Of a stretch of 64,000 nt of DNA, positions 547 to 47,736 are shown piece by piece. The position numbers were made by a program, and so were the translations under genes. Origin of the DNA: Planctomycetota bacterium (GTDB taxonomy: Bacteria > Planctomycetota > UBA1135 > UBA2386); assembly GCA_965228735.1 (NCBI GenBank), contig OZ245838.1:800001-864000 (forward strand). The letters are read 5' to 3'. Positions within the stretch are counted from its first letter, which is position 1, and each line of letters opens with the position of its first letter. Under the pieces are notes generated by a model that was not told where the DNA came from, did no database searches, and was given only the letters and a program-made list of their open reading frames with translations.

Positions 547-1268
547 CAGTTGCCTCCGCTGAATGGGTTGCCGCCGGCTGCGCCCGCCTCGCCGGCGCCG
601 CCGCCTTGGCCGCGCGACGCCGCGACGGCGCTCGCCTGCTCGGGCGTGAGCCCCGAGATCGCGAGCGTGCTGAGCCGCGCCTTGACCATGAGCGCGTCGC
701 GCTGATCCGGGTAGTCGGGGTTGAGCTTGGGGAAGTAGACGATGACGCCGACCTCCTCGAACTCGTCCTCGGTCGGCGCGCGCTCCTCGAGTTCGCGGGC
801 CTGCTGCTCCTCGTAGAGCTGATCCTGATACTCCATGAAGCTCAGGCCCCGCGACTTCGCCCTGCGGTACTGGTCCCGCTCGCGCTGCCACTGGTTCTCC
901 TCGATCGCCTCGCCGTCGTCACCGGCCGCCATGTTCGCGATCTCGGTCTCGGCGTCGGTCACGGCGGTCTCGCCGATCACGATCTTGTAGCTCCAACGCT
1001 CGGCGTACTTCTCCTCGAGCGAGATCTCCGTGCCGGAGTCGGGCGGCACCTCGTGGGAGCCGGCGCGCAGCTCGGACAGCCGTTCGTCCGCGATCTCGCG
1101 CGCGAGCCGCCAGTTGCGGGCGTGGGTCGCGTCGATGAGCGCGGTCGTGCGCACGCCGAGGAACGTCGTCACGACGAGCGCGACGATGCCGAGCGCGACG
1201 AGGGCTTCGAGCAGGGTGAAGCCGGCTTCATCGCCTGCCGATCGCAGAACCTCTGGTCGCTGGCTCAT
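546..1268 (-). CDS. Type II secretion minor pseudopilin, GspI-like
   Basis: C-terminal part of ORF 546..2123. Start MSQRPEVLRSAGDEAG|FTLLEALVALGIVALVV is a prepilin motif; ATG at 1268 overlaps the upstream stop. Confidence 0.8.
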   Translation of the reverse strand: MSQRPEVLRSAGDEAGFTLLEALVALGIVALVVTTFLGVRTTALIDATHARNWRLAREIADERLSELRAGSHEVPPDSGTEISLEEKYAERWSYKIVIGETAVTDAETEIANMAAGDDGEAIEENQWQRERDQYRRAKSRGLSFMEYQDQLYEEQQARELEERAPTEDEFEEVGVIVYFPKLNPDYPDQRDALMVKARLSTLAISGLTPEQASAVAASRGQGGGAGEAGAAGGNPFSGGN

Positions 1269-1840
1269 CAGAATGCTCCTTCGCCGACGTAGGGCGGGTC
1301 GGGGATCTCGCCTTCGCGGCTCTCGTGCACCGAGGTGGCGCCGGTGAGGCCACGCAGTTCGATCGCCCAGATCTCGTTGGGCTCGTCCTCGAGGCGGAGC
1401 ACGATGACCTGGTCGCTCGAGAAGCCGTACTCGTCGAAGCGCACGCGGTAGATGCCGCTCTCCGCGAGCCCGGTCCTGCCGTCGCCGACGCCGGCGAACT
1501 TGACGCCCTTCTCGAGTTCGTTCCACTCGAACCACTTCTCCTCGAGGCTCTGCGGATCCTGATCGAGCGTCAGCCGCATGTCGGCCGGCAGGATCATGCG
1601 CCAGCGCGCCCGATCGAGATCGAGCTCGAGCGACATCTCGCGGCCGCGGATCAGCGCCTCCGAACGCAGATAGTCGAGGCGCCGCAGGATCTGCTTGCCG
1701 CTGCCCTCGAGGCGCGCGCTCGGCACGAGCGCGCCGAGGTTGGGCAGGACCATCGCGAGCAGCAGCGAGATGATCGCCATCGTCACGAGCAGCTCCATCA
1801 ACGTGAAGCCGCTCACGCTCGTTCGCCCGCGAGTTCGCAC
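1268..1840 (-). CDS. Type II secretion minor pseudopilin, GspH/FimT-like
   Basis: MRTRGRTSVSG|FTLMELLVTMAIISLLLAMVLP prepilin motif, then 'LDYLRSEA'; coupled to gspG. Confidence 0.82.
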   Translation of the reverse strand: MRTRGRTSVSGFTLMELLVTMAIISLLLAMVLPNLGALVPSARLEGSGKQILRRLDYLRSEALIRGREMSLELDLDRARWRMILPADMRLTLDQDPQSLEEKWFEWNELEKGVKFAGVGDGRTGLAESGIYRVRFDEYGFSSDQVIVLRLEDEPNEIWAIELRGLTGATSVHESREGEIPDPPYVGEGAF

Positions 1841-35058: not shown

Positions 35059-37965
35059 CTACTGCGTGAACAGGTTGAGGTGCTGGTTGCTCGTCACGAT
35101 CTCGAAGTTGGCGTCGATCGTCACGACCTGGCTGTACCACACGAGGCCGGTGAGCGGGACGCCGGGCGGAGCCGTGATGGGCAGCGAGTAGTTGCCGCTG
35201 CCGTTCGTGTAGTCGAACAGGCTGATCGGGTTGCCACCGACGAGGATCGGCGGGACGCCCGGGAAGAGCGTCGGGCCGCCGTCGAGGCCGATCACCCAGA
35301 TGAACGGCTGGCTCGCGGGCGTCGTCACGTCGAGCGTGAGGTTGCTGCCCTGCTGAGCCATCGGCGGATCGAGGTGCAGTCGGGTCGACAACGGCGCGGC
35401 GCTCGTCGACGTGAGCACTTCGATGTCGTCGATGCCCCAGCCGCCGCCCTGCACGGTTGCGTCACTGTCGAGCCGGAACTCGAGCACGAGGTTGGGGCTG
35501 TTGTCGACGCTCGGCGGCAGTGACTGTTCCCAGGTCGTCCAGCCCGTGTCCTGGAGCGGTTGCTGCGGGCTGAAGTAGACCGGCACGCCGTTGACCCAGA
35601 TCGACAGGCGATCGAGGAAGCCGACGTCGACGCTCGCCCAGCGCTTGAAGCGCAGCCGCAGGTTGCTGTAGGCCGAGCAGTCGATCCCCGGGGACCGCAG
35701 GTACGAACTCGTGGACGGCGGGTAAGCGCCGGCCAGGTTGTTGCCCGCGCACGACGTGCCGCTCGCGGCACCCGCGGGGTCCTGCCACCACGAGCCGGCC
35801 GCCCCGGTCGGCGTGCCGATCTGCCAGTCGTCGACTCCCACCGTGGCGCCGTGCGTCCAGCCCGGTCCGCCCGCTTCGAAGTCCTCCGTCCAGATCGTCT
35901 CGTCGGCGTACGTCGCGTACTCGAACTCGCCGGTCACCGGCAGGCGATACGTCGTCGAGCCGCTGTGGACGGCCTCGAAGTGGTACGTGAGCGTCTGCGA
36001 CGACGGCATGCCCGGCAGCAGCGCGCGCCAGCCGTCCGGGGTCCCGCTCGGGATCATCACCTGCTGTCGCGGCTGACCGTCGTCGTAGTGCACGCGCACT
36101 TCGGTGAAGGAGCCGAAGCTCGGCACCGCGCGGCACTCGACGAGGCGCGGCGTGAGCGGCTGGTCAGTGCGCTCGAGCGGCGCATCGTGCGCGAGGAACC
36201 CCGGCAGAATCGGCGGATACGGCAGGCTGTGCGAGTTGCACGCGGCCGCGAGCTGCGCGTGGTGCGGCGTGCCGTTGACGATATTGCCGTCGTCGTCGTC
36301 GGCGATGAAGACCTGCGTGACGGCGGCCGGTTGGTTGATCGCGTTGGCGACGACGGACGCGAGCACCGTGTTGTTGCTGATGTCGATCGCCTGCGCGGTG
36401 CCGAACGCGCTCCGCAGGTTCTGCCGGTACTTCCAGGCGAAGCCCATCCAGGTCTGGCCCTGACGGTGCACGCCGCCGCCGGCCGGGTACTGGCGGCTGT
36501 TGTTGCCGGTCCGGAGCCCGCCGCCGCTGCTGTAGAAGCCGTGGCCGATCGTCGGGTCGTCGAGCAGATAAATGCTGCAGATGTCACCCCAGCCTTCGCT
36601 GAGGCCGTCGACCTGCGAGATGCCGCCATAGCGATCGTCGAGGCCGTGACCCCACTCGTGCGCGATCACCGACGCGCTCGCCGTGTTGTTGCAGCTGCCC
36701 TGCGCGCGGTAGAAGTTGATCGAGTTGCCGCTGTAGTAGGCGTTGCATGATGCCTGGATGTTGACCGTCGGTTGCACGCGGCTCGCGAGATCGAGCTCCG
36801 GCGTGTTGCCGAGCACGCTGCGCAGCAGCTCGTTGATGCGATCGACCCAGTAGAAGCACGTCGTGTGCGCGAGTTCGTTCTGCGTGCTGTTCACCGCGCC
36901 GAACTGCAGGGTCTGCGGCACACCCGGCTGCAGCGTCGTCGTCACGGTGAGCGCGTTGCTGCCGATGATCCGGTTGCAGTGGATGCCGTCGAGCTCCAGC
37001 GTCGCGAGCACGGGACTCGTGAGGTCGACCGTGAACTGCCCGTTCTGATCGGTGACGAAATCACCGATCCCGGCGAGCGCGATCTCGAGGCCGACGAGCG
37101 GCTCATTGGTCGGCGTCGTGGCGGGGGAGAACTGGGTGTGGACCCAGCCCATCACGGTGAACGTGGTGGGCACCGGTGCGGCGGTAGCTGCGCTGGCCGA
37201 GGGAGTCGGCCGATGGATCGAACACCCGAACCCGCACTCGTGCTTGTCGGAGCGCCAGGCCAGCACGCCGCCGGTGTGCGCGTCGACGTAGACGCGGCCG
37301 ATCGGGCCGTCGCCCTGCCGATCGACCGCGGCGATCGGGATCTCCCACGCGAGGGCCGGAGCGACCGGTGTCGCGCTGCCGTGATCGGCCCAGATCACGA
37401 GGCGACTCTTCTTCGCCGTGCCCGGTTGCGGCACCGCCGTGGGGGTCACGCCGCGGTCCTGCCACGCGATCGCCGTGGCGGCCTCGACCGTGATGCGCGG
37501 CTTGCCGTCGAAGGTCTTCGGGATCGGCACCGCCGTGCTGCCGAGGAAGCTGATGCGCCCGCGCATGTGAACCCGGACGTCGGCGCGGCCGCCGATCACG
37601 GGCAGGCCCGCGTGCGACTGCGCATACGTGAACGACCAGGTCCGGCCCATGCGCGCGCCCGTCCGCTCGACGAACGTGCTGGTGCCGAGCCCGAGCAGCT
37701 CGGACCAGCGATGCAGCTCGACGTCCGCGTGCCGCCTGGCCTCGGTCAGCGAGTTCGCGCGCCAGTCGACGAGGTCGTAGCCGCGACCGAAGACCTCGAG
37801 CGGTGTGCCCGTCGCGCCGTGCCAGCGCACGAGCCAGGGGCCCGGAACGGCGCTCTGGAATCGGGCCCAGGCCGCCGCGGTCGCGGGCGTTGGTTCCTGG
37901 GCCGGCAGGAGCGGACCGAGCAGAGCGGTGGCGGCGAGAGCACGAATGGCGAGGGAAGCGGACAT
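35059..37965 (-). CDS. Secreted M4/M36 (thermolysin/fungalysin-like) metalloprotease with accessory C-terminal domains
   Basis: Signal peptide; FTP/PepSY-like propeptide (VYVDAHTG); CNAYY, HEWGH, SEGWGD; EDFE...GWGIDDI jelly-roll domain. Confidence 0.88.
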   Translation of the reverse strand: MSASLAIRALAATALLGPLLPAQEPTPATAAAWARFQSAVPGPWLVRWHGATGTPLEVFGRGYDLVDWRANSLTEARRHADVELHRWSELLGLGTSTFVERTGARMGRTWSFTYAQSHAGLPVIGGRADVRVHMRGRISFLGSTAVPIPKTFDGKPRITVEAATAIAWQDRGVTPTAVPQPGTAKKSRLVIWADHGSATPVAPALAWEIPIAAVDRQGDGPIGRVYVDAHTGGVLAWRSDKHECGFGCSIHRPTPSASAATAAPVPTTFTVMGWVHTQFSPATTPTNEPLVGLEIALAGIGDFVTDQNGQFTVDLTSPVLATLELDGIHCNRIIGSNALTVTTTLQPGVPQTLQFGAVNSTQNELAHTTCFYWVDRINELLRSVLGNTPELDLASRVQPTVNIQASCNAYYSGNSINFYRAQGSCNNTASASVIAHEWGHGLDDRYGGISQVDGLSEGWGDICSIYLLDDPTIGHGFYSSGGGLRTGNNSRQYPAGGGVHRQGQTWMGFAWKYRQNLRSAFGTAQAIDISNNTVLASVVANAINQPAAVTQVFIADDDDGNIVNGTPHHAQLAAACNSHSLPYPPILPGFLAHDAPLERTDQPLTPRLVECRAVPSFGSFTEVRVHYDDGQPRQQVMIPSGTPDGWRALLPGMPSSQTLTYHFEAVHSGSTTYRLPVTGEFEYATYADETIWTEDFEAGGPGWTHGATVGVDDWQIGTPTGAAGSWWQDPAGAASGTSCAGNNLAGAYPPSTSSYLRSPGIDCSAYSNLRLRFKRWASVDVGFLDRLSIWVNGVPVYFSPQQPLQDTGWTTWEQSLPPSVDNSPNLVLEFRLDSDATVQGGGWGIDDIEVLTSTSAAPLSTRLHLDPPMAQQGSNLTLDVTTPASQPFIWVIGLDGGPTLFPGVPPILVGGNPISLFDYTNGSGNYSLPITAPPGVPLTGLVWYSQVVTIDANFEIVTSNQHLNLFTQ

Positions 37966-38213
37966 GGGCCGCGCCGATGATGCGTTCTGCCCGGGCCGTT
38001 GTCACCTCCCTGGCGCCACCGAGGCGGGGCTCCGCGCCAGAAGCGACCATGCCGAGGCGGGGTCCCGAGATGCTGTCCACCGTGTTCTCCGCGTGGCGGC
38101 GACCGTCGGCGACTCCCGGCCGATCAGCGCCGCCAGATCGGCGCGCGGGCTCGCGCGGCCCGGCGTCGGCTTGCGATTCGGCTGCCCGTGCGTAGATCGG
38201 GTGCTGAAGAGCC

Positions 38214-39548
38214 ATGACGTGGTCCGCACACTCGCTTCTCTCGACGCTGCCGCAGGGTGCCGGCCTGTTCAAACCGAGCGAGCAGGCGCAGGCGCCGCAG
38301 GAGCCCGAAGGGTTCTGGTTGTGGCTCTACGAGCACCAGCTCACGGCGCAGTGGATCGGGCTCGGTGGGCTCGTCGCGGCGGCCGTGCTCACCTGGTTCG
38401 TCACGTGGCTGCTGCTGCTGCCGCTGCTCGGCCGCCTCATCAAGCGGAGCAAGTTCACGTGGGATGACGCGTTCCTCGACGCGCGCTTCTTCCGCTGGCT
38501 CGTGAAGCTGTTCCCGGCGCTCGTGATGTTCTCGGGCGTCACGGTGGTGCGCGATCACTTCTATCTCGCCGACACCGCGTACGGCGCGATCCGCAACCTC
38601 GCGGCGGCCGTGATGATGATCTGCGCCGTGCTCGCGATGTGCGGCCTGCTCAACGCGCTGCAGTCGATCTACGCGGCCAGGGCCGGCAGCGCGCGGCGGC
38701 CGATCAAGGGCTACGTCGAGCTCGTCAAGATCTTCCTCGTCGTCGTCGGCGGCCTCGTCGCGATCGCGCTGCTGCTCGGCCGTGACGTCGGTGGGCTGTT
38801 GACGGGCGTCGGCGCGATGACCGCGGTGCTGATGCTGATCTTCAAGGACACGATCCTCTCCGCGGTCGCGTCCGTGCAGCTCGCGAACCAGAACATGCTG
38901 CGCATCGGTGACTGGATCGAGATGCCGAGCGTCGGCGCGGACGGCGACGTGATCGACATCGCGCTGCACACGATCAAGGTGCAGAACTTCGACAAGACGA
39001 TCTCGACGATCCCGACCTATCGCCTCGTCAGCGACACGTTCAAGAACTGGCGCGGCATGAGCGAGAGCGGCGGGCGGCGCATCAAGCGCAGCGTCGTGAT
39101 CGACGTCTCGACGATCCGCTTCCTGACCGACGAGGAGGTCGAGAGCTTCGGTCGGTTCGGGTTGCTGAAGAGCTACATCCTCGACAAGAAGCGGCGGCTG
39201 AAGAAGGAGAACGAGGGCAAGGATGCGGCGTCCTGTGACCTCGATCGGCTGCGGCTCACCAATGTCGGCACCTTCCGCGCCTACATGGTGCGCTACCTGC
39301 GCAGCCTGCCGAAGGTCCACAGCGGCATGACGTTCCTCGTGCGACAGCTGCCGCCGTCCGAGAACGGGTTGCCGATCGAGATGTACCTGTTCACCAACAC
39401 GACGGCGTGGGGCGAGTACGAGGACGTGCAGGCCGACATCTTCGACCACCTGCTCGCAGCGCTGCCCGAGTTCGGGCTGCGCGCGTTCCAGCGACCGACC
39501 GGGGCCGACCTCGCCGGGTTCGTGCGGGCGGAGCAGCAGGCCCCCTGA
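38214..39548 (+). CDS. Mechanosensitive ion channel, MscS family (YbdG-like)
   Basis: GVGAMTAVLMLIFKDTIL, GDWIEMP..GADGDV, VQNFDKTI, NWRGMSESGGRRIKRS, LTNVGTFRAY, EFGLRAFQ. Confidence 0.95.
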   Translation: MTWSAHSLLSTLPQGAGLFKPSEQAQAPQEPEGFWLWLYEHQLTAQWIGLGGLVAAAVLTWFVTWLLLLPLLGRLIKRSKFTWDDAFLDARFFRWLVKLFPALVMFSGVTVVRDHFYLADTAYGAIRNLAAAVMMICAVLAMCGLLNALQSIYAARAGSARRPIKGYVELVKIFLVVVGGLVAIALLLGRDVGGLLTGVGAMTAVLMLIFKDTILSAVASVQLANQNMLRIGDWIEMPSVGADGDVIDIALHTIKVQNFDKTISTIPTYRLVSDTFKNWRGMSESGGRRIKRSVVIDVSTIRFLTDEEVESFGRFGLLKSYILDKKRRLKKENEGKDAASCDLDRLRLTNVGTFRAYMVRYLRSLPKVHSGMTFLVRQLPPSENGLPIEMYLFTNTTAWGEYEDVQADIFDHLLAALPEFGLRAFQRPTGADLAGFVRAEQQAP

Positions 39549-39564
39549 ACTCTCGATCGGGGCG

Positions 39565-39918
39565 TCAGCCGCCGAAGTGCTCGGCGTAGGCGTCGGCGTG
39601 GAACCCGACGTGCCACGTCTTGCCGGTGCGGATCGCGGGCGCGCGCAGGTTGCCCGATGGACCGATCACCACCGAGCGCAGCTCGTCGATGTCGAACTCC
39701 GACTTCTTCGGCTGGAACACCAGCGTCTTCTTGCCCTTCGCGACGACGATCTTGCTCGCGTCACCGAACAGCTCCTCGACCGTGTCGGGGCCGAAGCGCT
39801 CCTTGGCTGCGTTGACCGTCTCCCGGACGGTCGTGCCGGTGCCCTCGAGGGCGGCGTCGGCACGCTTGCAGCTCGTTCAACCCTTGCGGTGGTAGTACCA
39901 GTCGATCTTCTTGGCCAT
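39565..39918 (-). CDS. ArsC/Spx-like thioredoxin-fold selenoprotein candidate (Sec at codon 14, UxxC); absent from ORF track
   Basis: Manual translation MAKKIDWYYHRKG-TGA-TSCKRADAALE...VVAKGKK...GPSGNLRAPAIRTGKTWHVGF... gives 117 aa. The in-frame TGA at 39879-39877 is the first position of CxxC. Confidence 0.88.
39814..39864 (-). promoter_or_regulatory. Candidate SECIS hairpin(s) downstream of the ArsC-like UGA
   Basis: Hairpin 1 starts 13 nt after UGA: CGUGCCG/CGGCACG lower stem, GCCC/GGGC upper stem, UCGA loop. Hairpin 2: GACCGUC-CGGGA-GACGGUC (39832-39814). Confidence 0.5.
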
Positions 39919-40062
39919 GGTATCGATGGATAGCGCGGCGCGTTCGGCTGGTCCACGGTCGATCCTGCGCGTTCGGAGTCGCCGGTCCCGGGGCTCCCAC
40001 CCCTCGCCCGTCGGCGGTACCCTCTCTACGGGGGAGCTTCGACTCGCAACTCAGGAACTACC

Positions 40063-43000
40063 ATGCCCGCCGTCCGCCTCATCGTCACATCGATCCTGGC
40101 CGGAGGTGCGCTCGCACCGCTCACGGCCCAGAATCTGATCGCCAATCTGCAGCCGGCCGGGGGGAGTGCGTCCGGCGGGTTCTTCGAGGGGTTCGCCGTC
40201 GCGGGCAACGGGGCGTTCGCGGTCTTCAGCGCCAACGGGCGTCACGGCCGTGAGCTCTGGGTGACGGACGGCACGCAGGCCGGCAGCGACCTGCTGGTCG
40301 ACCTCGAGCCCGGCGCGAGCGGGTCGTTTCCCGGTGAGTTCGCCGTGCTCGGGAACGAGGTGCTGTTCGCGGCGACCGTGCCAGGGCTCGGTCGTGAGCT
40401 CTGGATCACGGACGGCACGGTTCACGGCACCCGCCTGCTGCGTGACCTCGACCCCGGCTCCGGATCGAGTTCGCCGGACGAGCTCACGACGTTCGGAGGC
40501 TTCGTGTACTTTGCGGCCAACGTTCCCGGGGCCGGGATCGAGTTGTGCCGAACGGATGGCACGACGGCTGGCACCGGGATCTTCGCCGACCTGACGGTCG
40601 GCAGTTCGTCGCCGCGTGAGTTCGCGGTCGTGGGGAACGAGCTCTACTTCACCGCGATAATCGCAGGGGCGGGGCGCGAGCTGTGTCGCACGGACGGCAC
40701 CGCCGCCAACACGGGCCTCGCGGTCGACGTCGTGCCGGGGTCCACGGGTTCGACGCCGACCGACATCGCGCCGTTCGGGAGCGGGCTGCTGTTCAGCGCG
40801 TTCGCCTCCGCGACCGGCCGGGAGGCCTACTTCTCCGACGGCACGGCGGCAGGCACCGTGTTGCTCGCCGACCTGAATCCCGGGCAGAACTCCAACCCGA
40901 TCGAGTTCACGGACCTCGGCGGGCTCGCCGTGTTTCGCGCGACGGGGCCGGCCGGCCGTGAGCTCTACGTCACGGACGGGACGCCGGCGAACACCGCCCT
41001 GTTGCGCGATATCCGGGCCGGGATCAGCAGCGGGGTCACCACCGAGGAGTTCGTCCAGTATCAGGGGCGGGCCTACTTCAGCGCCGACGACGGCGCGATC
41101 GGTCAGGAGTTGTGGAGCACCGACGGCACGCCGGCCGGAACCGGCCCGGTTCTCGATCTGCGGCCCGGCAGTCCGGACTCCGCCCCGGCCGGGTTCGTCG
41201 AGATTGGCGGCGAGCTGTGGTTCGTCGCCACCGATGCCGGCGGTGATCGGGAGATCTGGAAGACGGACGGCACGGCCACCGGAACGGTTCAGGTCATCGA
41301 TCTCGAGGCGTCGTTCTCCGCCCAGCCGGAGGATCTCGTGCCGTTCGGTGGCGGCGCCGTTCTGTGTTCGGCCATCGCGCCGGGCACCGGACGCGAACCG
41401 TTTCACGTCGACGGGACCGTGCCCGGGAGCTATCTGCTCGTCGACACCAGGCCCGCCGCCGGCGACTCGAACCCGGAGGGTTGGACGGAGTTCGCGGGAG
41501 GCGCGTTCTTCGCCGCCAGCGTCACCGGGGTCGGCACGGAGGGATACGTGACGGACGGCACCTCGGCCGGTACGGCCGTCGTCGACCTGCTGCCGGGTGG
41601 CGGCAGCGGTAGGCCCGAACACGCCGTGGCGTTCGGGGGGCGCATCGTGTTCGAAGGCGACGACGGACCGAGCGGTCGTGAGCTGTTCTCAACGGATGGG
41701 ACGCTGGGCGGAACCATCCAGCTCAGTGATGTTCCGGGCGGCAACGGAGTGCAGCCGCGGTTCATGGTCGCAACGTCGACCCATGTGTTCTATCGCGGCA
41801 GCGAGGCGCAGTATGGCAGCGAGTTGCACGTTTCCGACGGGACCCCGGCGGGCACCGGTCGGTTGGCGGATCTGAACCCGGGCTCGCTGTCGTCGAATCC
41901 GAGCGACTTCGCCGTGGCCGGTGATCGCGCGTTCTTCGTCGCCAACGACGGGGTCAGCGGGAGCGAACTCTTCTCCAGCGATGGTTCGCTCGCCGGGACC
42001 GTCTTGCACGACATTCGCCCCGGCACCGTGGGCTCGTCCCCGGACGAGCTCGTCGATCTCCAGGGCAAACTCGTGTTCGTCGCGAACGATGGTTCGCAGG
42101 GTCTCGAACTCTGGTGCTCGGACGGCTCGGTGGCCGGGACCAATCCGATTGCGGATCTCGTGCCCGGTATCGGTAGTTCCTCTCCCCGCGACCTCACAGT
42201 TGCGGACACCCGAGTGTTCTTCACCGCCGCCATCCCGGGGGCCGGTCGGGAACTCTGTGTCACCGATGGTACGGCTGCCGGCACGGGACTCGTCGTGGAC
42301 CTCGTGCCCGGCGGTGTTGGCTCCGTGATTCGTGACCTCCGCGGCGTCGGATCGCGTGCGTTCTTCCTCTACGACGATGGTTCGGGGACGGGCGCCGAAC
42401 TCTGGACCAGTGACGGCACCGCGGCCGGAACGCATCTCGTGCGCGACATCGGCCCGGGCGCGATCGATGGTCCGATCCCGGGTTCGTTGACGTCGATCCT
42501 CGACGGGCAACTGCTGTTGTTCGCGGCGAGCGACGTCGCCAGCGGCATGCAGTTGTGGATCAGCAACGGCACGACTGGGGGAACGCTGCCAGTGACATCT
42601 TTCGGTGTCGGGGGGCGCGGTGCCGTCTCACTCGGACCGTTCCTCGATACCGGCAGCCGCGTGTTCTTCGCCGCCGATGACGGGCTCCAGGGCAACGAGC
42701 CGTGGGTCTTCGACCTCAACGGTTCGGGCGCGGCGTTCGTGCTCAACTACGGCCATGGCTGCTCGACCACTCCCACGACGGTGCCCCGGATCGGCTCGAC
42801 CGGCGGCCTCCCCTCGCCGGGGACCACGACGTTCGCCGTGACCCTCACGAACGCACCCGCGACGACCGCGGCGTTCCCGCTCGTGGCGTTCACGCCGGGA
42901 TCGTTCCTGCTCGGCTCGGGCTGTCGCCAACTCATCGGAGTGCCCTACATCGCGCTGCCGCTCCGCTTCACGGACCCGGTCGGTGACGCCCAGATCCCGA

Positions 43001-43131
43001 TCGGTTTGCCGAACGACCCGAGCTACATCGGGGTCAACCTGTTCTGTCAGTGGGGCGTCATCGCGACGCCGGGACGCTTGCTCGGCGCATTCGATCTCAG
43101 CGACGGGCTGCAGGCCCAGATCGGGAACTGA
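40063..43131 (+). CDS. Secreted ELWxxDGT-repeat (beta-propeller) protein
   Basis: Signal peptide; more than 15 G.EL(W/Y/F/C)..DGT..GT repeats; distinct C-terminal domain. Confidence 0.93.
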   Translation: MPAVRLIVTSILAGGALAPLTAQNLIANLQPAGGSASGGFFEGFAVAGNGAFAVFSANGRHGRELWVTDGTQAGSDLLVDLEPGASGSFPGEFAVLGNEVLFAATVPGLGRELWITDGTVHGTRLLRDLDPGSGSSSPDELTTFGGFVYFAANVPGAGIELCRTDGTTAGTGIFADLTVGSSSPREFAVVGNELYFTAIIAGAGRELCRTDGTAANTGLAVDVVPGSTGSTPTDIAPFGSGLLFSAFASATGREAYFSDGTAAGTVLLADLNPGQNSNPIEFTDLGGLAVFRATGPAGRELYVTDGTPANTALLRDIRAGISSGVTTEEFVQYQGRAYFSADDGAIGQELWSTDGTPAGTGPVLDLRPGSPDSAPAGFVEIGGELWFVATDAGGDREIWKTDGTATGTVQVIDLEASFSAQPEDLVPFGGGAVLCSAIAPGTGREPFHVDGTVPGSYLLVDTRPAAGDSNPEGWTEFAGGAFFAASVTGVGTEGYVTDGTSAGTAVVDLLPGGGSGRPEHAVAFGGRIVFEGDDGPSGRELFSTDGTLGGTIQLSDVPGGNGVQPRFMVATSTHVFYRGSEAQYGSELHVSDGTPAGTGRLADLNPGSLSSNPSDFAVAGDRAFFVANDGVSGSELFSSDGSLAGTVLHDIRPGTVGSSPDELVDLQGKLVFVANDGSQGLELWCSDGSVAGTNPIADLVPGIGSSSPRDLTVADTRVFFTAAIPGAGRELCVTDGTAAGTGLVVDLVPGGVGSVIRDLRGVGSRAFFLYDDGSGTGAELWTSDGTAAGTHLVRDIGPGAIDGPIPGSLTSILDGQLLLFAASDVASGMQLWISNGTTGGTLPVTSFGVGGRGAVSLGPFLDTGSRVFFAADDGLQGNEPWVFDLNGSGAAFVLNYGHGCSTTPTTVPRIGSTGGLPSPGTTTFAVTLTNAPATTAAFPLVAFTPGSFLLGSGCRQLIGVPYIALPLRFTDPVGDAQIPIGLPNDPSYIGVNLFCQWGVIATPGRLLGAFDLSDGLQAQIGN

Positions 43132-43237
43132 CGCGGAACGTGCCGGCGCGCGTCGGCCGGTCCCGAAAACGCGAGAATTCCGGTCGGTTCGGAGTCTTGC
43201 CTGCGTAGCGCGGCGGGATCGTCGGGTCCCACCAAGC

Positions 43238-44374
43238 ATGAAGCGTTTCCTCCTCGCGGTCGGCATGCTGCCTTGCCTCCTGTCGGTCCTGGCAGCGCAG
43301 TCCTACGTCGTCGACGTCAACAGCGGGCCCAATACCGCGTTCACCGCGCTCGACACGGCAGTTGCGGCGGCGCCCAACGGCGCGACGTTGCTCGTGCGGC
43401 CGGGGAGCTACCAGGCTTTCCACATTTCGGGGAAAGGTCTCACCATTCTCGGTGAGCCCGGCGCGGTCATCGATGGCAGTGCGCCGGGGGCGCTCTGCAA
43501 GGTCAGCTCGCTGCACCCGGGCCAGCGGTTCGCCATGCGCGGCGTCGCGCTCGGGAACGTGCTGGGGCCCGTCGCGGTCGATCTGCACAGCAACGTCGGC
43601 CCGGTGATCCTCGACTTTCCACCGATGGCGCCGGTCGCGGCGCGCTGCGTCGTCAATCAGAGCCACCAGGTGCACGTTCGTGGGCTGCGGATCGACTTCC
43701 CGCACCTGCCCGCGCTCGCGGTCGGGAACGGCGTCTACAGCTTCGTCGACTGTTCGTTCGTGAGTGAGCGCGCGGCCGTCGAGATCGGCGATGCCTACGT
43801 GCAGCTGACGGACTGCTACCTGTCCGGCTACCAGCAGCCGACGCTCGGCCCGGCGCACGCCGTGGTCAGCCTGCAGATCAACTCGCGCGTCGAGATCCGC
43901 GGCGGGCAAATCGACGGCTGGACGGCCCTCGGGGTGCCGTATGCGTTCGCGGGGATCGGGTTCGCGCAGCTCGATGCGGCGACCCAGGTCACGAACGTGA
44001 CGGGCATGACCAACGGGTTCGTTACCCTGACCGTGGCCGGCGCCGCGCGGTGCCGGGCGAGCACCGCGCCGATTCCGAACGGCGCGACGCCGGCGTTCGC
44101 GACGGCGCGCGCGACCGGGCCCGCGGGCAGCGTGGTCGCGCTCGTGGTCGGTCACCCGGGGTTGCCGCAGATCGTCGCCGGGGTGCAGTATCCAACCTGG
44201 CTCGCGCCCCAGACCGGGTTGCTGCATGCGATCGGTGCTGGATCGGTCACGGGCGGCTATGCGGTGCCGAGCGCCACGTGGCTGCGCGGCGTCGATGTCG
44301 CGTGGCAGGGGCTGAGCTTCGACGCGGCGAACGGGCTGCAGTTCAGCAACGCGGCGACCTACGTCCACAACTGA
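43238..44374 (+). CDS. Secreted hypothetical protein, beta-helix-like N-domain plus C-terminal beta domain
   Basis: Signal peptide LAA|Q; AVAAAPNGATLLVRPGSY beta-helix cap motif. Confidence 0.75.
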   Translation: MKRFLLAVGMLPCLLSVLAAQSYVVDVNSGPNTAFTALDTAVAAAPNGATLLVRPGSYQAFHISGKGLTILGEPGAVIDGSAPGALCKVSSLHPGQRFAMRGVALGNVLGPVAVDLHSNVGPVILDFPPMAPVAARCVVNQSHQVHVRGLRIDFPHLPALAVGNGVYSFVDCSFVSERAAVEIGDAYVQLTDCYLSGYQQPTLGPAHAVVSLQINSRVEIRGGQIDGWTALGVPYAFAGIGFAQLDAATQVTNVTGMTNGFVTLTVAGAARCRASTAPIPNGATPAFATARATGPAGSVVALVVGHPGLPQIVAGVQYPTWLAPQTGLLHAIGAGSVTGGYAVPSATWLRGVDVAWQGLSFDAANGLQFSNAATYVHN

Positions 44375-44455: not shown

Positions 44456-46825
44456 GTGGACCTGAGCACGTTCGTGCAGCGACTGCGCGACAATCGCGAG
44501 GACGGACCGGGCGTCGTCGATGCCTGGCACCGCACCGAGGCGCGCGCGGCGCGGATGCGACCGGTGCCCGAGTGGCTGCACGAAAAGCTCGTGGATGCGC
44601 TGCGCGCGCGCGGCATCCAGGAGCTCTACAGCCACCAGCGCGAGTGTGCCGACGCGCTGCACGGCGGCAAGAACGTCGTCATCGCGACCTCGACCGCGTC
44701 CGGCAAATCGCTGAGCTACCAGCTGCCGGTGCTCGACGCGCTGCTGCGCGATGGGCTCGATGCGCGCGCGCTGCACCTGTATCCGACCAAGGCGCTGGCG
44801 CGCGACCAGATGGCGGATCTCGAGCAGCTCATCGCGGCCGCGGGCCTCGGTGACGAGCTGCCGGTCGCGGTCTACGACGGCGACACGCCGCCGTCGGTGC
44901 GGCAGGCGATGCGCGAGAAGGGCGCGTGCGTGCTGACCAACCCGCACATGCTGCACCAGGGCATCCTGCCGAACCACACCAAGTGGCAGGGTCTGTTCAC
45001 CGGTCTGCGCTACGTTGTCGTCGACGAGCTGCACACGCTGTCGGGGATCTACGGCTCGCACGTCGCCAACGTGCTGCGGCGGCTGCGGCGGATCTGCCGG
45101 CACTACGGCAGCGATCCGGTGTTCTGCGGCGCGTCCGCGACGATCAGCAACGCCGGTGAACACGGCCGGAAGCTGTTCGAGCAGCCCGTCGAGGTCGTGG
45201 ACGACGACGGCAGCCCCGCGGGCCGCAAGCACTACGTGTTCTTGAACCCGCAGCTCGTGTCCGCCGCGTCCGGCATGCGCGTGCCCGCGAGCGAGTCGGC
45301 GCGCCAGCTCGGCGGCGAATTGCTCGGCAGCGACCTGCAGACGATCTTCTTCGCGCGGTCGCGCAACCAGACCGAGGTGCTGCTCAAGTACCTGCGCGAC
45401 GAGGCCAAGGCGCGCAAGATCGACCAGGGGCGGGTCGCGGGCTACCGCGGCGGCTACCTGCCGAACCTGCGGCGCTCGATCGAGAAGGGGCTGCGCAAGG
45501 GCGAGATCCGGACCGTCGTCTCGACGAACGCGCTCGAGCTCGGCGTCGACATCGGCAGCCTCGACGTCTGCGTGCTCGTCGGCTACCCGGGGACGGTCGC
45601 GAGCACGTTCCAGCGCGCGGGTCGCGTCGGGCGCCGCACGCAGGAGAGCGCCGTCGTGATGGTGGCGCGCTCGTCGGCGATGGATCAATTCCTCGTGCAG
45701 CATCCGGACTACCTGTTCGGCACCCGGCGCGACGCGGTGAGCATCGATCCCGACAACGCGATCATCCTCACGAACCACATCCGCTGTGCTGTGTTCGAGC
45801 TGCCGTTCGATCGCGGCGAGATGTTCGGCGAGGCGGCGGACACCGCCGCCGTTCTCGAGTTCCTGACCGAGGACCTCGGGGTGCTCGTCGAGCAGGGCGG
45901 GCGCTTCCACTACGCCGACCGCACGTATCCGGCCGAGGGCGTGAGCCTGACCGCGGCCGACATGGACAACGTCACGATCCAGGACGTGGAGACGCAGAAG
46001 ATCCTGGCCGAGATCGATCGGCCGTCGGCGATCACGGAGGTGCACGACGGCGCCATCTACGGCCACCAGGGCGACACGTATCTCGTCGAACGCTTCGACT
46101 ACGAGGATCGGCGCGCGTTCGTGAAGCGCATCGACTCGGACTACTACACCGAGGCCGACGTCGAGACCGAGGTCAAGATCCTGCACCTCGACGAGCAGCA
46201 GGATCACCGCGGCTACGTCGCGCACCGCGGCGAGGTGCACGTGAGCACGGTCGCCAAGGCGTTCAAGAAGATCAAATACTACACGCGCGAGAACGTCGGC
46301 ATCGGGCCGATCGAACTGCCGCCCGAGGAGTTCGAGACCGAGGCGACCGCGCTCGTGCTGCAGCCGGAGCTGATCGCCGATCTCGGGCTCAAGCGCGGCG
46401 GCGAGGCGGCGTGCCTGCAGGGCGTCGGCGAGCTGCTCAAGGGGCTCGTGCCGCTGTTCGTGCGCGTCGATCCGGGCGATGTGCGCGTGCTCGCCGAGGC
46501 GCTGCAGCCGCACTTCGAGGCGCCGACGCTGATCCTCTACGACCGCATCCCCAACGGCGTCGGGCTCGCCGAACGCATCTATCGCGTGCACCGCGAGATC
46601 CTCGGCGCGGCGCTCGAGCTCGTGCAGCGCTGCCAGTGCCGCTTCGGGTGCCCGTCGTGCGTCGGCCCGAGCAGCACGCTCGGGGCGCGCAGCAAGGCGG
46701 TCGCGATGGCGATCCTCACGGGCATGCTCGGCGATGGCGCGACGTCGGTGCGAGCGCGGCCCTTGCCCGACAACGGCGCCCAGCTGTCTGGTGAGGGTGC
46801 GGCGGGTGAGGGTGCGGCGTGGTAG
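44456..46825 (+). CDS. mrfA: DEAD/DEAH-box helicase with DUF1998 (MrfA/Hrq1-like)
   Basis: LYSHQ, TSTASGKS, YPTKALARDQ, YDGDTP, DELH, SAT, TNALELGVDIG, QRAGRVGR; C-terminal CQCRFGCPSC. Confidence 0.9.
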   Translation: MDLSTFVQRLRDNREDGPGVVDAWHRTEARAARMRPVPEWLHEKLVDALRARGIQELYSHQRECADALHGGKNVVIATSTASGKSLSYQLPVLDALLRDGLDARALHLYPTKALARDQMADLEQLIAAAGLGDELPVAVYDGDTPPSVRQAMREKGACVLTNPHMLHQGILPNHTKWQGLFTGLRYVVVDELHTLSGIYGSHVANVLRRLRRICRHYGSDPVFCGASATISNAGEHGRKLFEQPVEVVDDDGSPAGRKHYVFLNPQLVSAASGMRVPASESARQLGGELLGSDLQTIFFARSRNQTEVLLKYLRDEAKARKIDQGRVAGYRGGYLPNLRRSIEKGLRKGEIRTVVSTNALELGVDIGSLDVCVLVGYPGTVASTFQRAGRVGRRTQESAVVMVARSSAMDQFLVQHPDYLFGTRRDAVSIDPDNAIILTNHIRCAVFELPFDRGEMFGEAADTAAVLEFLTEDLGVLVEQGGRFHYADRTYPAEGVSLTAADMDNVTIQDVETQKILAEIDRPSAITEVHDGAIYGHQGDTYLVERFDYEDRRAFVKRIDSDYYTEADVETEVKILHLDEQQDHRGYVAHRGEVHVSTVAKAFKKIKYYTRENVGIGPIELPPEEFETEATALVLQPELIADLGLKRGGEAACLQGVGELLKGLVPLFVRVDPGDVRVLAEALQPHFEAPTLILYDRIPNGVGLAERIYRVHREILGAALELVQRCQCRFGCPSCVGPSSTLGARSKAVAMAILTGMLGDGATSVRARPLPDNGAQLSGEGAAGEGAAW

Positions 46826-47736
46826 CCCCGGAGCGCAACAAACTCGGGCGTGACAAACTGCGGCGCGCGTTCCAGGGCGAACGCCAGCGCCGTGGCGGCT
46901 CGGCGGAGCCCGAGCAACGCACCGAACCCGCCGCACCGCCGCGTGGCAACGTCCGCGCGTTCCTCGCGCAGCGTCGCAAGAAGCTCGCGGCTGGCCAGGA
47001 CCCCGACGCGCGACCGGCCGTCGAGCTGCCGCCCGGCGAGGTCGTGCTGAGTCGCGACGGACCGTTGTGGCGCCGCGAGCTGCGCTATCCGCTCGATCAC
47101 GTGCACGGCCGCTTCCGCCTCGACGCGGCGCTCGAGCTCGACGGCGACCACCTCGCGACGATCGCCAAGACCGACGACTTCAGGGCGATCGACCCGCGCC
47201 AGTGCCTGTTCCTCGACACCGAAACGACGGGGCTGTCCGGTGGGGCGGGGACCGTGGTCTTCAACTACGGCTTCGCGTTCTTCCGCGGCGACGAGCTCGT
47301 CGTCGAGCAGCTGTTCCTGCGCGACTTCAGCGAGGAGGCGGCGATGCTGCGACACGTCGCGGCCCGGCTCTGGCAGTATCCCGTGCCCGTCACGTTCGTC
47401 GGCAAGAGCTACGACCGCCACCGCATCGCGACGCGCATGGCGCTGCACAAGCTGCGTTCGCCCGTGCTCACCGCGCCGCACCTCGATCTCTACTACTGCG
47501 CCCGCCGCGCGCACGGTCACGAGCTGCCCGACACGCGGCTCAGGACGGTCGAAGAACGCTTGCTCGCCGTGCACCGCGAGGACGACCTGCCGGGCAGCGA
47601 GGCGCCGGCGGCGTTCCTCGACTGGATCCGCAACGGCCGCGGCCCGGTCGACCGGGTGCTCGAACACAACCGGATCGACGTGCTGAGCCTCTGCACCCTG
47701 CTCGGTGTCCTGGCGGGAGCGGCGCGCGGGGCGTAA
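46819..47736 (+). CDS. mrfB: RNase H-like DEDD exonuclease (YprB/MrfB-like)
   Basis: FLDTETTGLSGGAG, TFVGKSYD, HLDL, DDLPGSEAP, HNRIDVLSL; overlaps the helicase gene. Confidence 0.85.
   Translation: MVAPERNKLGRDKLRRAFQGERQRRGGSAEPEQRTEPAAPPRGNVRAFLAQRRKKLAAGQDPDARPAVELPPGEVVLSRDGPLWRRELRYPLDHVHGRFRLDAALELDGDHLATIAKTDDFRAIDPRQCLFLDTETTGLSGGAGTVVFNYGFAFFRGDELVVEQLFLRDFSEEAAMLRHVAARLWQYPVPVTFVGKSYDRHRIATRMALHKLRSPVLTAPHLDLYYCARRAHGHELPDTRLRTVEERLLAVHREDDLPGSEAPAAFLDWIRNGRGPVDRVLEHNRIDVLSLCTLLGVLAGAARGA

Follow-up and report, generated by a model that had tools for sequence, protein, structure and literature searches.

A folded terminal domain on unrelated exported proteins of Planctomycetota, a candidate docking tag for the cell surface

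The DNA analysed here is a window of 64,000 nucleotides from a Planctomycetota bacterium (assembly GCA_965228735.1, contig OZ245838.1, positions 800,001 to 864,000), part of a single 7.19-Mb contig whose genome (G000) is 93% complete. Three of its genes encode signal-peptide proteins, an M4/M36-like zinc metallopeptidase, an ELWxxDGT-repeat protein and a protein with a probable beta-helix body, which end in a common terminal domain (Table 1). An earlier note, made from the sequence alone, had pointed to this shared C-terminal signature on otherwise unrelated bodies and proposed a lineage-specific sorting or anchoring tag. All three tails match the pattern P-x6-G-x5-Q-x12-16-S[ND]-x7-8-end literally and fall into one hidden Markov model (HMM) family. 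Pairwise BLAST gives no significant alignment of the bodies (best E 0.09), in agreement with the note, nor of the tails (best E 0.19); three sequences alone are thus unable to prove homology and a profile is needed. The metallopeptidase matches PF02128 (E 0.0015) and PF01447 (E 0.01) below cut-off, and its HEWGH motif is invariant in 75 orthologues. For the beta-helix gene the most likely start is 43238 (MKRFLL...) rather than a GTG at 42983. A fourth gene, for an M14 zinc carboxypeptidase, had been taken for truncated; it is only cut by the window edge, is complete at 62718-64499 and ends in the domain too (64122-64493, HMM E 1.3e-6). It is followed by a stand-alone gene of 144 amino acids (aa), made up of a signal peptide and the domain (E 5.4e-13).

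Table 1. Domain-bearing genes, domain copies and one context gene in the window (positions counted from its first nucleotide; AF2, AlphaFold2)
Feature	Position	Strand	Basis
Cargo 1: M4/M36-like zinc metallopeptidase, signal peptide, 968 aa	35059..37965	-	open reading frame as placed in the earlier note
Terminal domain copy 1, cysteine-less variant	35062..35421	-	HMM E 1.4e-8, envelope 35077-35421
Cargo 2: ELWxxDGT-repeat protein, signal peptide, 1022 aa	40063..43131	+	TIGR04534 E 5e-210, 18 stretches
Terminal domain copy 2, two-cysteine variant	42727..43128	+	HMM E 8.4e-11; AF2 pLDDT 92.9, all-beta
Cargo 3: signal-peptide protein, 378 aa, probable beta-helix body	43238..44374	+	TIGR04247 NosD E 4e-5, far below cut-off
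Terminal domain copy 3	44033..44371	+	HMM E 2.9e-7
Cargo 4: M14 zinc carboxypeptidase, 593 aa	62718..64000 in window, runs on to 64499	+	PF00246 E 2.5e-17
GspH-like pseudopilin of type II secretion system type (context only, belonging not shown)	1268..1840	-	PF07963 E 9e-7, PF12019 E 0.001

The HMM from the three tails was run against open reading frames (ORFs) of G000, with reversed sequences as decoys. It found 28 ORFs at E<0.001, all 28 with the match ending at most 15 aa from the stop, and no decoy. Iterated models gave 257 ORFs with the domain; once sequences of a distant genome were added, the count was 293 (E<0.001) or 321 (E<0.05), with 0/9007 decoys. The strict end-anchored pattern occurs in 44 of the 9007 coding-like ORFs, all of them in the domain set, and never after the last 60 residues were shuffled (20 shuffles, 0 in each). 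When the model was rebuilt without the window proteins, it regained the three tails (E 6e-10, 6e-7 and 8e-7), a test that is not fully independent since the original seed came from the window. The domain is about 125 residues long with a mean pairwise identity of 26%, rich in Pro, Leu and Gly and low in charged residues. There is one copy per protein (the only double match, 1/321, consists of overlapping halves of one copy), and the 285 bodies of sufficient length for comparison fall into 117 clusters. The strict C-terminal position expected in the note holds for most copies: 270 of 293 lie within 15 residues of the stop and 12 are followed by 16-50 residues, but 11 lie elsewhere (10 immediately follow the signal peptide and 1 is internal). 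N-terminal copies also occur in the distant genome G162, and related bodies there and in G000 carry the domain N-terminally and C-terminally, respectively (locus L165). Copies right after the signal peptide argue against a sorting signal that needs a free C-terminus. Signal peptides, judged by eye and with a home-made heuristic rather than SignalP, co-occur with the domain as the note had anticipated (197/260 domain proteins vs 1162/3269 background ORFs). A hydrophobic helix in the last 40 aa was found in 0/277 domain proteins (19-residue hydropathy above 1.8). Several short genes encode little beyond a signal peptide and the domain, and domain-bearing frames (277, stop to stop) span about 7.6% of the genome.

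Among genomes of the same order, 30/31 contain the domain, mostly with dozens of matches or more each, and G021 has none. In a phylum-wide sample it was found in 33 of 161 Planctomycetota genomes, including families outside this order. Public data hold 25,145 clusters at 50% identity that match it; among the matches listed (150 clusters) all are C-terminal. Homologues of the M36 and M14 bodies are same-lineage proteins only, among the matches listed (120). In the ESM Atlas 30 unnamed clusters were found with Planctomycetota as the commonest taxon, and the names in 10 clusters are 'hypothetical' or 'PKD repeat protein'. Across these searches the names of the sources indicate Planctomycetota. 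A scan of 43 members against Pfam and NCBIfam gave no match and a PDB sequence search nothing significant (best E 0.024); none of the three libraries has an entry for the domain. No paper describing the domain was found among Creative Commons PubMed Central (PMC) papers and bioRxiv, supplements excluded. Many signal-peptide proteins of unknown location are reported for Planctomycetota in a section of PMC11495043, and the terms 'secretion' and 'signal peptide' are absent from the main text of bioRxiv 10.1101/817700. We concluded that the domain family is real, large and uncatalogued. It behaves as a many-to-one terminal tag, yet lies outside the families of type IX secretion system (T9SS) C-terminal domains (CTDs), CTERM tags and dockerins.

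Some further features of the family were observed. In 209/234 domain proteins with a hydrophobic N-region an Ala/Gly/Ser-Gln stands just past that region (a count without background rate); this suggests a mature N-terminal Gln, as in the Q-rule of Bacteroidota. Lysine is very scarce in domain-bearing proteins (0.5% in bodies, 0.2% in domains). An RCC1-like repeat gene (L187:8252-9372) has its C-terminal domain copy in a different frame, through a frameshift or an assembly error. One domain copy has a single contig match, at 54% identity, in a record whose title names a Brocadiaceae metagenome-assembled genome and perhaps does not give the true lineage.

AF2 run on the 43-sequence alignment gave a confident all-beta model (pLDDT 92.9). 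When the M36 protein was folded on its own 75 orthologues (pLDDT 90.8 over the full protein), its tail (residues 862-967, block pLDDT 92-97) showed the same strand order, minus the first short strand and a short helix. The expectation that the tails fold alike is borne out for these two of the three tails, on independent alignments. The domain is predicted to be a separately folding immunoglobulin (Ig)-like beta-sandwich. Its closest structural row is PirB (6grq, Z 9.1, root-mean-square deviation 2.6 over 97 residues), and no row stands clear of the others. Generic Ig/FN3/macroglobulin-type sandwiches share the overall topology, but identities of 7-16% allow no transfer of function. Foldseek against PDB and BFVD gave 0 matches at E<0.001; the weak rows are mostly generic Ig folds and include the lipid-binding ML-fold proteins NPC2 and Der f 2 (E 0.009 and 0.034). 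The top conserved positions are Pro (95%), Gln (93%), Ser/Thr (89%) and Gly (84%), and they stay conserved among M36 as well as among M14 orthologues. The P/G/Q/SN motif is probably a portion of the folded domain and a structural signature of the fold, its residues possibly doubling as a recognition patch. Two cysteines vary together (145 copies have both, 74 have neither and 46 have one), the pair being nearly invariant in M14 orthologues and missing from the M36 consensus, a pattern consistent with a predicted optional disulfide.

Conservation also bears on the idea of a domain without a sorting role, a passive cap for folding or stability that duplication and shuffling have spread. Among orthologues, conservation is lower in tail columns than in body columns (M36, 0.57 vs 0.65; M14, 0.52 vs 0.75), and the conserved positions are chiefly Gly, Pro and Cys, as such a cap would have it. 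Still, among the matches listed the domain is kept at E<0.01 in 110/120 M36 and 118/120 M14 homologues (in the other 10 M36 homologues the pattern is visible by eye, and the other 2 of M14 are fragments), it is strictly single-copy, and it is exchanged with dockerins on the same cargo (see below). We therefore regard a passive cap as very improbable.

The T9SS CTD of Bacteroidota (TIGR04183/PF18962) is a comparable tag, a folded Ig-like terminal domain, as the present one is predicted to be, on signal-peptide cargo; low pairwise identity and hundreds of copies per genome are common to both. According to a portion of PMC11285876, T9SS CTDs are folded Ig-like signals, the cleaved ones of 67-88 aa and the uncleaved CTDs of PorZ and PorU of 96 and 108 aa. 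The present domain is longer than the cleaved CTDs, lacks the conserved lysine in the last strand described in that portion, and can be N-terminal (10/293) or internal (1/293). TIGR04183/PF18962 matched 0/43 members at E<=1 in Pfam or NCBIfam, a genome-wide TIGR04183 search of G000 gave 0 with the positive control also silent, and no T9SS CTD is among the structural matches listed (50), though the predicted fold itself is Ig-like. PorV was not found in G000 (positive control detected, genome 93% complete), nor was SprA (positive control silent). The PEP-CTERM/exosortase, GlyGly-CTERM/rhombosortase and MYXO-CTERM systems are many-to-one terminal tags as well, each laid out as a short motif, a transmembrane helix and a basic tail. 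M36 peptidases are known CTERM cargo, and NF038111 and NF038112 weakly match the catalytic part of cargo 1, but the domain is without a C-terminal helix in 277/277 proteins. The earlier statement that the tails match neither T9SS CTDs nor PEP-CTERM is supported by the absence of a library match and of a C-terminal helix, by copies at the N-terminus and by PorV not being found.

The same data bear on cleavage of the domain by a transpeptidase of the PorU, exosortase or rhombosortase type, with covalent linkage of the cargo to the envelope. G000 does encode one exosortase and one divergent C25 (gingipain-family) protein (860 aa with signal peptide, 3598143-3600809, L046:313-2895). The C25 protein, however, has no PorU model match at E<0.001 and does not carry the domain, PorV was not found, the domain has no membrane helix or basic tail, and N-terminal copies would be impossible to process in this way. 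An exosortase gene also occurs in the domain-negative genome G066. Such processing is scarcely credible.

A closer parallel came from the dockerins (PF00404, NF041540), which are likewise single terminal modules on many unrelated exported proteins. The M4/M36 body was sought in 80 genomes, 77 of them domain-negative; homologues were found in 9, and 22 of 24 loci had a readable ORF. From domain-negative genomes, 9/12 homologues end in a dockerin-type module and 3 are cut by the locus edge. The nine calls were made by NF041540 over cut-off (2), PF00404 over cut-off (2), PF00404 below cut-off (3) and eye only (2). Among the 8 complete homologues from the domain-positive genomes G032 and G067, the domain is recognised at E<0.01 in 5 and its pattern by eye in 3, and none has a dockerin end. 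The likeness extends to N-terminal placement: a Kelch-type protein has an N-terminal dockerin in G032, and its G000 homologues bear an N-terminal domain copy. These comparisons show that the domain occupies the same slot as dockerins on homologous cargo in sister lineages. The modules themselves differ, the domain being all-beta and Ig-like with about 125 aa and the dockerin a calcium-loop helical module; the duplicated calcium-binding loop-helix motif was not found in the all-beta model or by library match. Across the 80 genomes compared, the 34 domain-positive ones have 0-3 PF00404 matches each (0 in 24) and G000 has none; at least 12 occur in 9/46 domain-negative genomes, and G021, which alone in this order was found to lack the domain, has 39. 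No genome searched has both expansions. Cohesin matches occur in 6/30 genomes, with cohesin and dockerin in one protein at 4/6 cohesin loci read. The domain itself has no sequence match to cohesin PF00963, and no cohesin is among the structural matches listed (50), where such a fold could be missed. Non-cellulosomal dockerins are treated in part of bioRxiv 10.1101/2023.11.21.568195.

We favour, with about even confidence, the reading of the domain as an uncleaved docking handle that places or holds cargo at a common cell-surface site, because it occurs once per protein, at either end, on diverse cargo, without a membrane helix and in the slot of dockerins. The cargo would be exported via Sec, as predicted from the signal peptides, would fold in the periplasm and cross the outer membrane via a secretin-type channel, and one shared envelope partner would bind it non-covalently through the domain. 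Of the tag proposed in the earlier note, a lineage-restricted, uncatalogued terminal domain on diverse cargo is retained, as a folded domain and not as a linear C-terminal motif. Several points weigh against docking. Sharing a slot with dockerins fails to separate docking from export signalling. Dockerin scarcity is common (37/46 domain-negative genomes have at most 4 matches), the domain/dockerin anti-correlation is confounded by kinship since relatives are not independent, and the 9 dockerin-rich genomes include 3 that joined the set after the M4/M36 body search. PF00963 has no match in G000 (positive control detected; diverged cohesins could escape), and dockerin-rich G021 is without a cohesin match, leaving the dockerin ligand there unclear. 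The M36 orthologue family lacks the cysteines. No partner was found among the shared candidates profiled, and no scaffoldin-like tandem-repeat protein is common to G000 and G162.

For the partner hunt, 2.52 Mb of the approximately 2.58-Mb genome G162 was compared with G000, giving 258 shared signal-peptide candidates. We scanned 68 hand-picked proteins against Pfam, 62 from the candidate list and 6 from a beta-barrel scan, with membrane and cytoplasmic proteins left out; the barrel scan (approximate hand-set weights) gave nothing specific. Candidates rejected as specific partners were a twin-secretin/TPR/ExbB/ExbD cluster, which is phylum-wide (65/80 genomes and 32/46 negatives, the 65/80 figure referring to a homologue of the secretin N-terminal part), the window M14 peptidase (only 6/80 genomes), two unannotated exported proteins that occur in domain-negative genomes, and the C25 protein, which lacks the domain (not profiled across genomes). 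The lack of a co-occurring partner gene would fit a domain that has no protein receptor, and instead binds an envelope lipid or polysaccharide or self-associates into a surface layer with the stand-alone proteins as filler. The several stand-alone genes, the Pro/Leu/Gly-rich, charge-poor composition and the ML-fold rows point the same way. We give this a small chance, since modules that bind ligands or layers are often found as tandem copies, unlike this single-copy domain, and the Foldseek rows are non-significant and mostly generic Ig folds.

The note had also suggested that the tag might be served by a type II secretion system (T2SS)-like machine at the window start. The genes there are pseudopilin genes, the GspH-like gene of Table 1 and an adjoining GspJ-like gene (read by eye); gspD/E/F partners are 1.4 Mb away and the genome has seven secretins, whose neighbourhoods by eye resemble T2SS, type IV pilus, Tad and other clusters. 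This link was not upheld, and export through a secretin is possible. Phylogenetic profiling, which the note had called for, gave as its best correlate a two-gene cassette at 3403055-3405104 of G000 (L188:4058-6011). Its first gene encodes an exported protein of 128 aa that weakly resembles OmpH/Skp (E 0.0005, below cut-off), the second a secretin of 511 aa, whose signal is of lipoprotein type and whose periplasmic part is short. In 33/34 domain-positive genomes and in 8 domain-negative ones (41 in total) the short secretin gene directly follows the Skp-like gene. The exception among the positives, G129, is 96% complete and has at least 26 domain matches; both genes are absent from it, and each of its five secretins lies in a frame of at least 684 aa. 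The pair is therefore not shown to be required. The Skp-like gene occurs in 11/46 domain-negative genomes and is absent from 6/9 dockerin-rich ones, and the pair may be a clade marker only.

The profiles used here were built from 5 positive and 2 negative genomes. The cassette bears on the reading of the domain as a folded export address, similar to T9SS CTDs and read by a secretin-based channel (the T2SS, or the minimal lipoprotein secretin with the Skp-like protein), with the cargo afterwards released or held by other means. Single copies at a strictly C-terminal position in 92% (270/293) resemble T9SS CTDs, seven secretins offer channels, the cassette accompanies the domain in nearly all positives, and in G049 the pair precedes a dockerin-tailed protein. 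The case of G129, the occurrence of the Skp-like gene among negatives, the few genomes behind the profiles and the N-terminal copies, unlike T9SS CTDs, stand against it. We consider an export address unlikely but worth taking seriously, and it is not mutually exclusive with the docking handle.

Taken further, several Planctomycetota classes, uncultured or barely cultured, might run an undescribed display system in which interchangeable folded tags (beta-sandwich or dockerin) bring hundreds of proteins, here about 8% of coding space, to the surface via a platform-less minimal secretin and Skp-like protein, a functional counterpart of the T9SS from different parts; we see only a slim chance of this. 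If a dedicated channel or receptor were found, it would be a new sorting system. With a model of the domain, much of the 'hypothetical' exoproteome in whole Planctomycetota classes would be annotated as probable surface cargo, and the domain opens to test how, in the absence of a T9SS, these bacteria get enzymes and adhesins out of the cell. The exchange of the domain with dockerins is relevant to the role of the many planctomycete dockerins without a detected cohesin.

Other observations concern secretion genes and neighbours. At 6769699-6784599 of G000 (L187:3699-18599) two long lipoprotein secretins, weakly related to the Amuc_1098 family, flank two TPR-like proteins, ExbB and two ExbD genes, possibly a secretin machine driven by proton-motive force. 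A GspK-like gene lies 1.1 kb downstream of the Skp-like/secretin cassette in G000. A pseudopilin cluster at 1397583-1412829 (L196), which encodes a GspK-like protein of 1735 aa and includes a PilM-like gene but no secretin, is kept in G162, and in G051 it shares a contig with the twin secretins. In G162 another shared C-terminal region, ending N-Y-D-W-x-x-F or similar, occurs on 9 proteins (loci L061, L101, L145, L146 and L155), has no match in G000 and is perhaps an ordinary paralogue family. In the window at 44456-47736, a DEAD/DEAH helicase gene with an MrfA zinc-binding domain is followed by a nuclease-like gene (read by eye), which we take to be an ordinary MrfA/MrfB pair.

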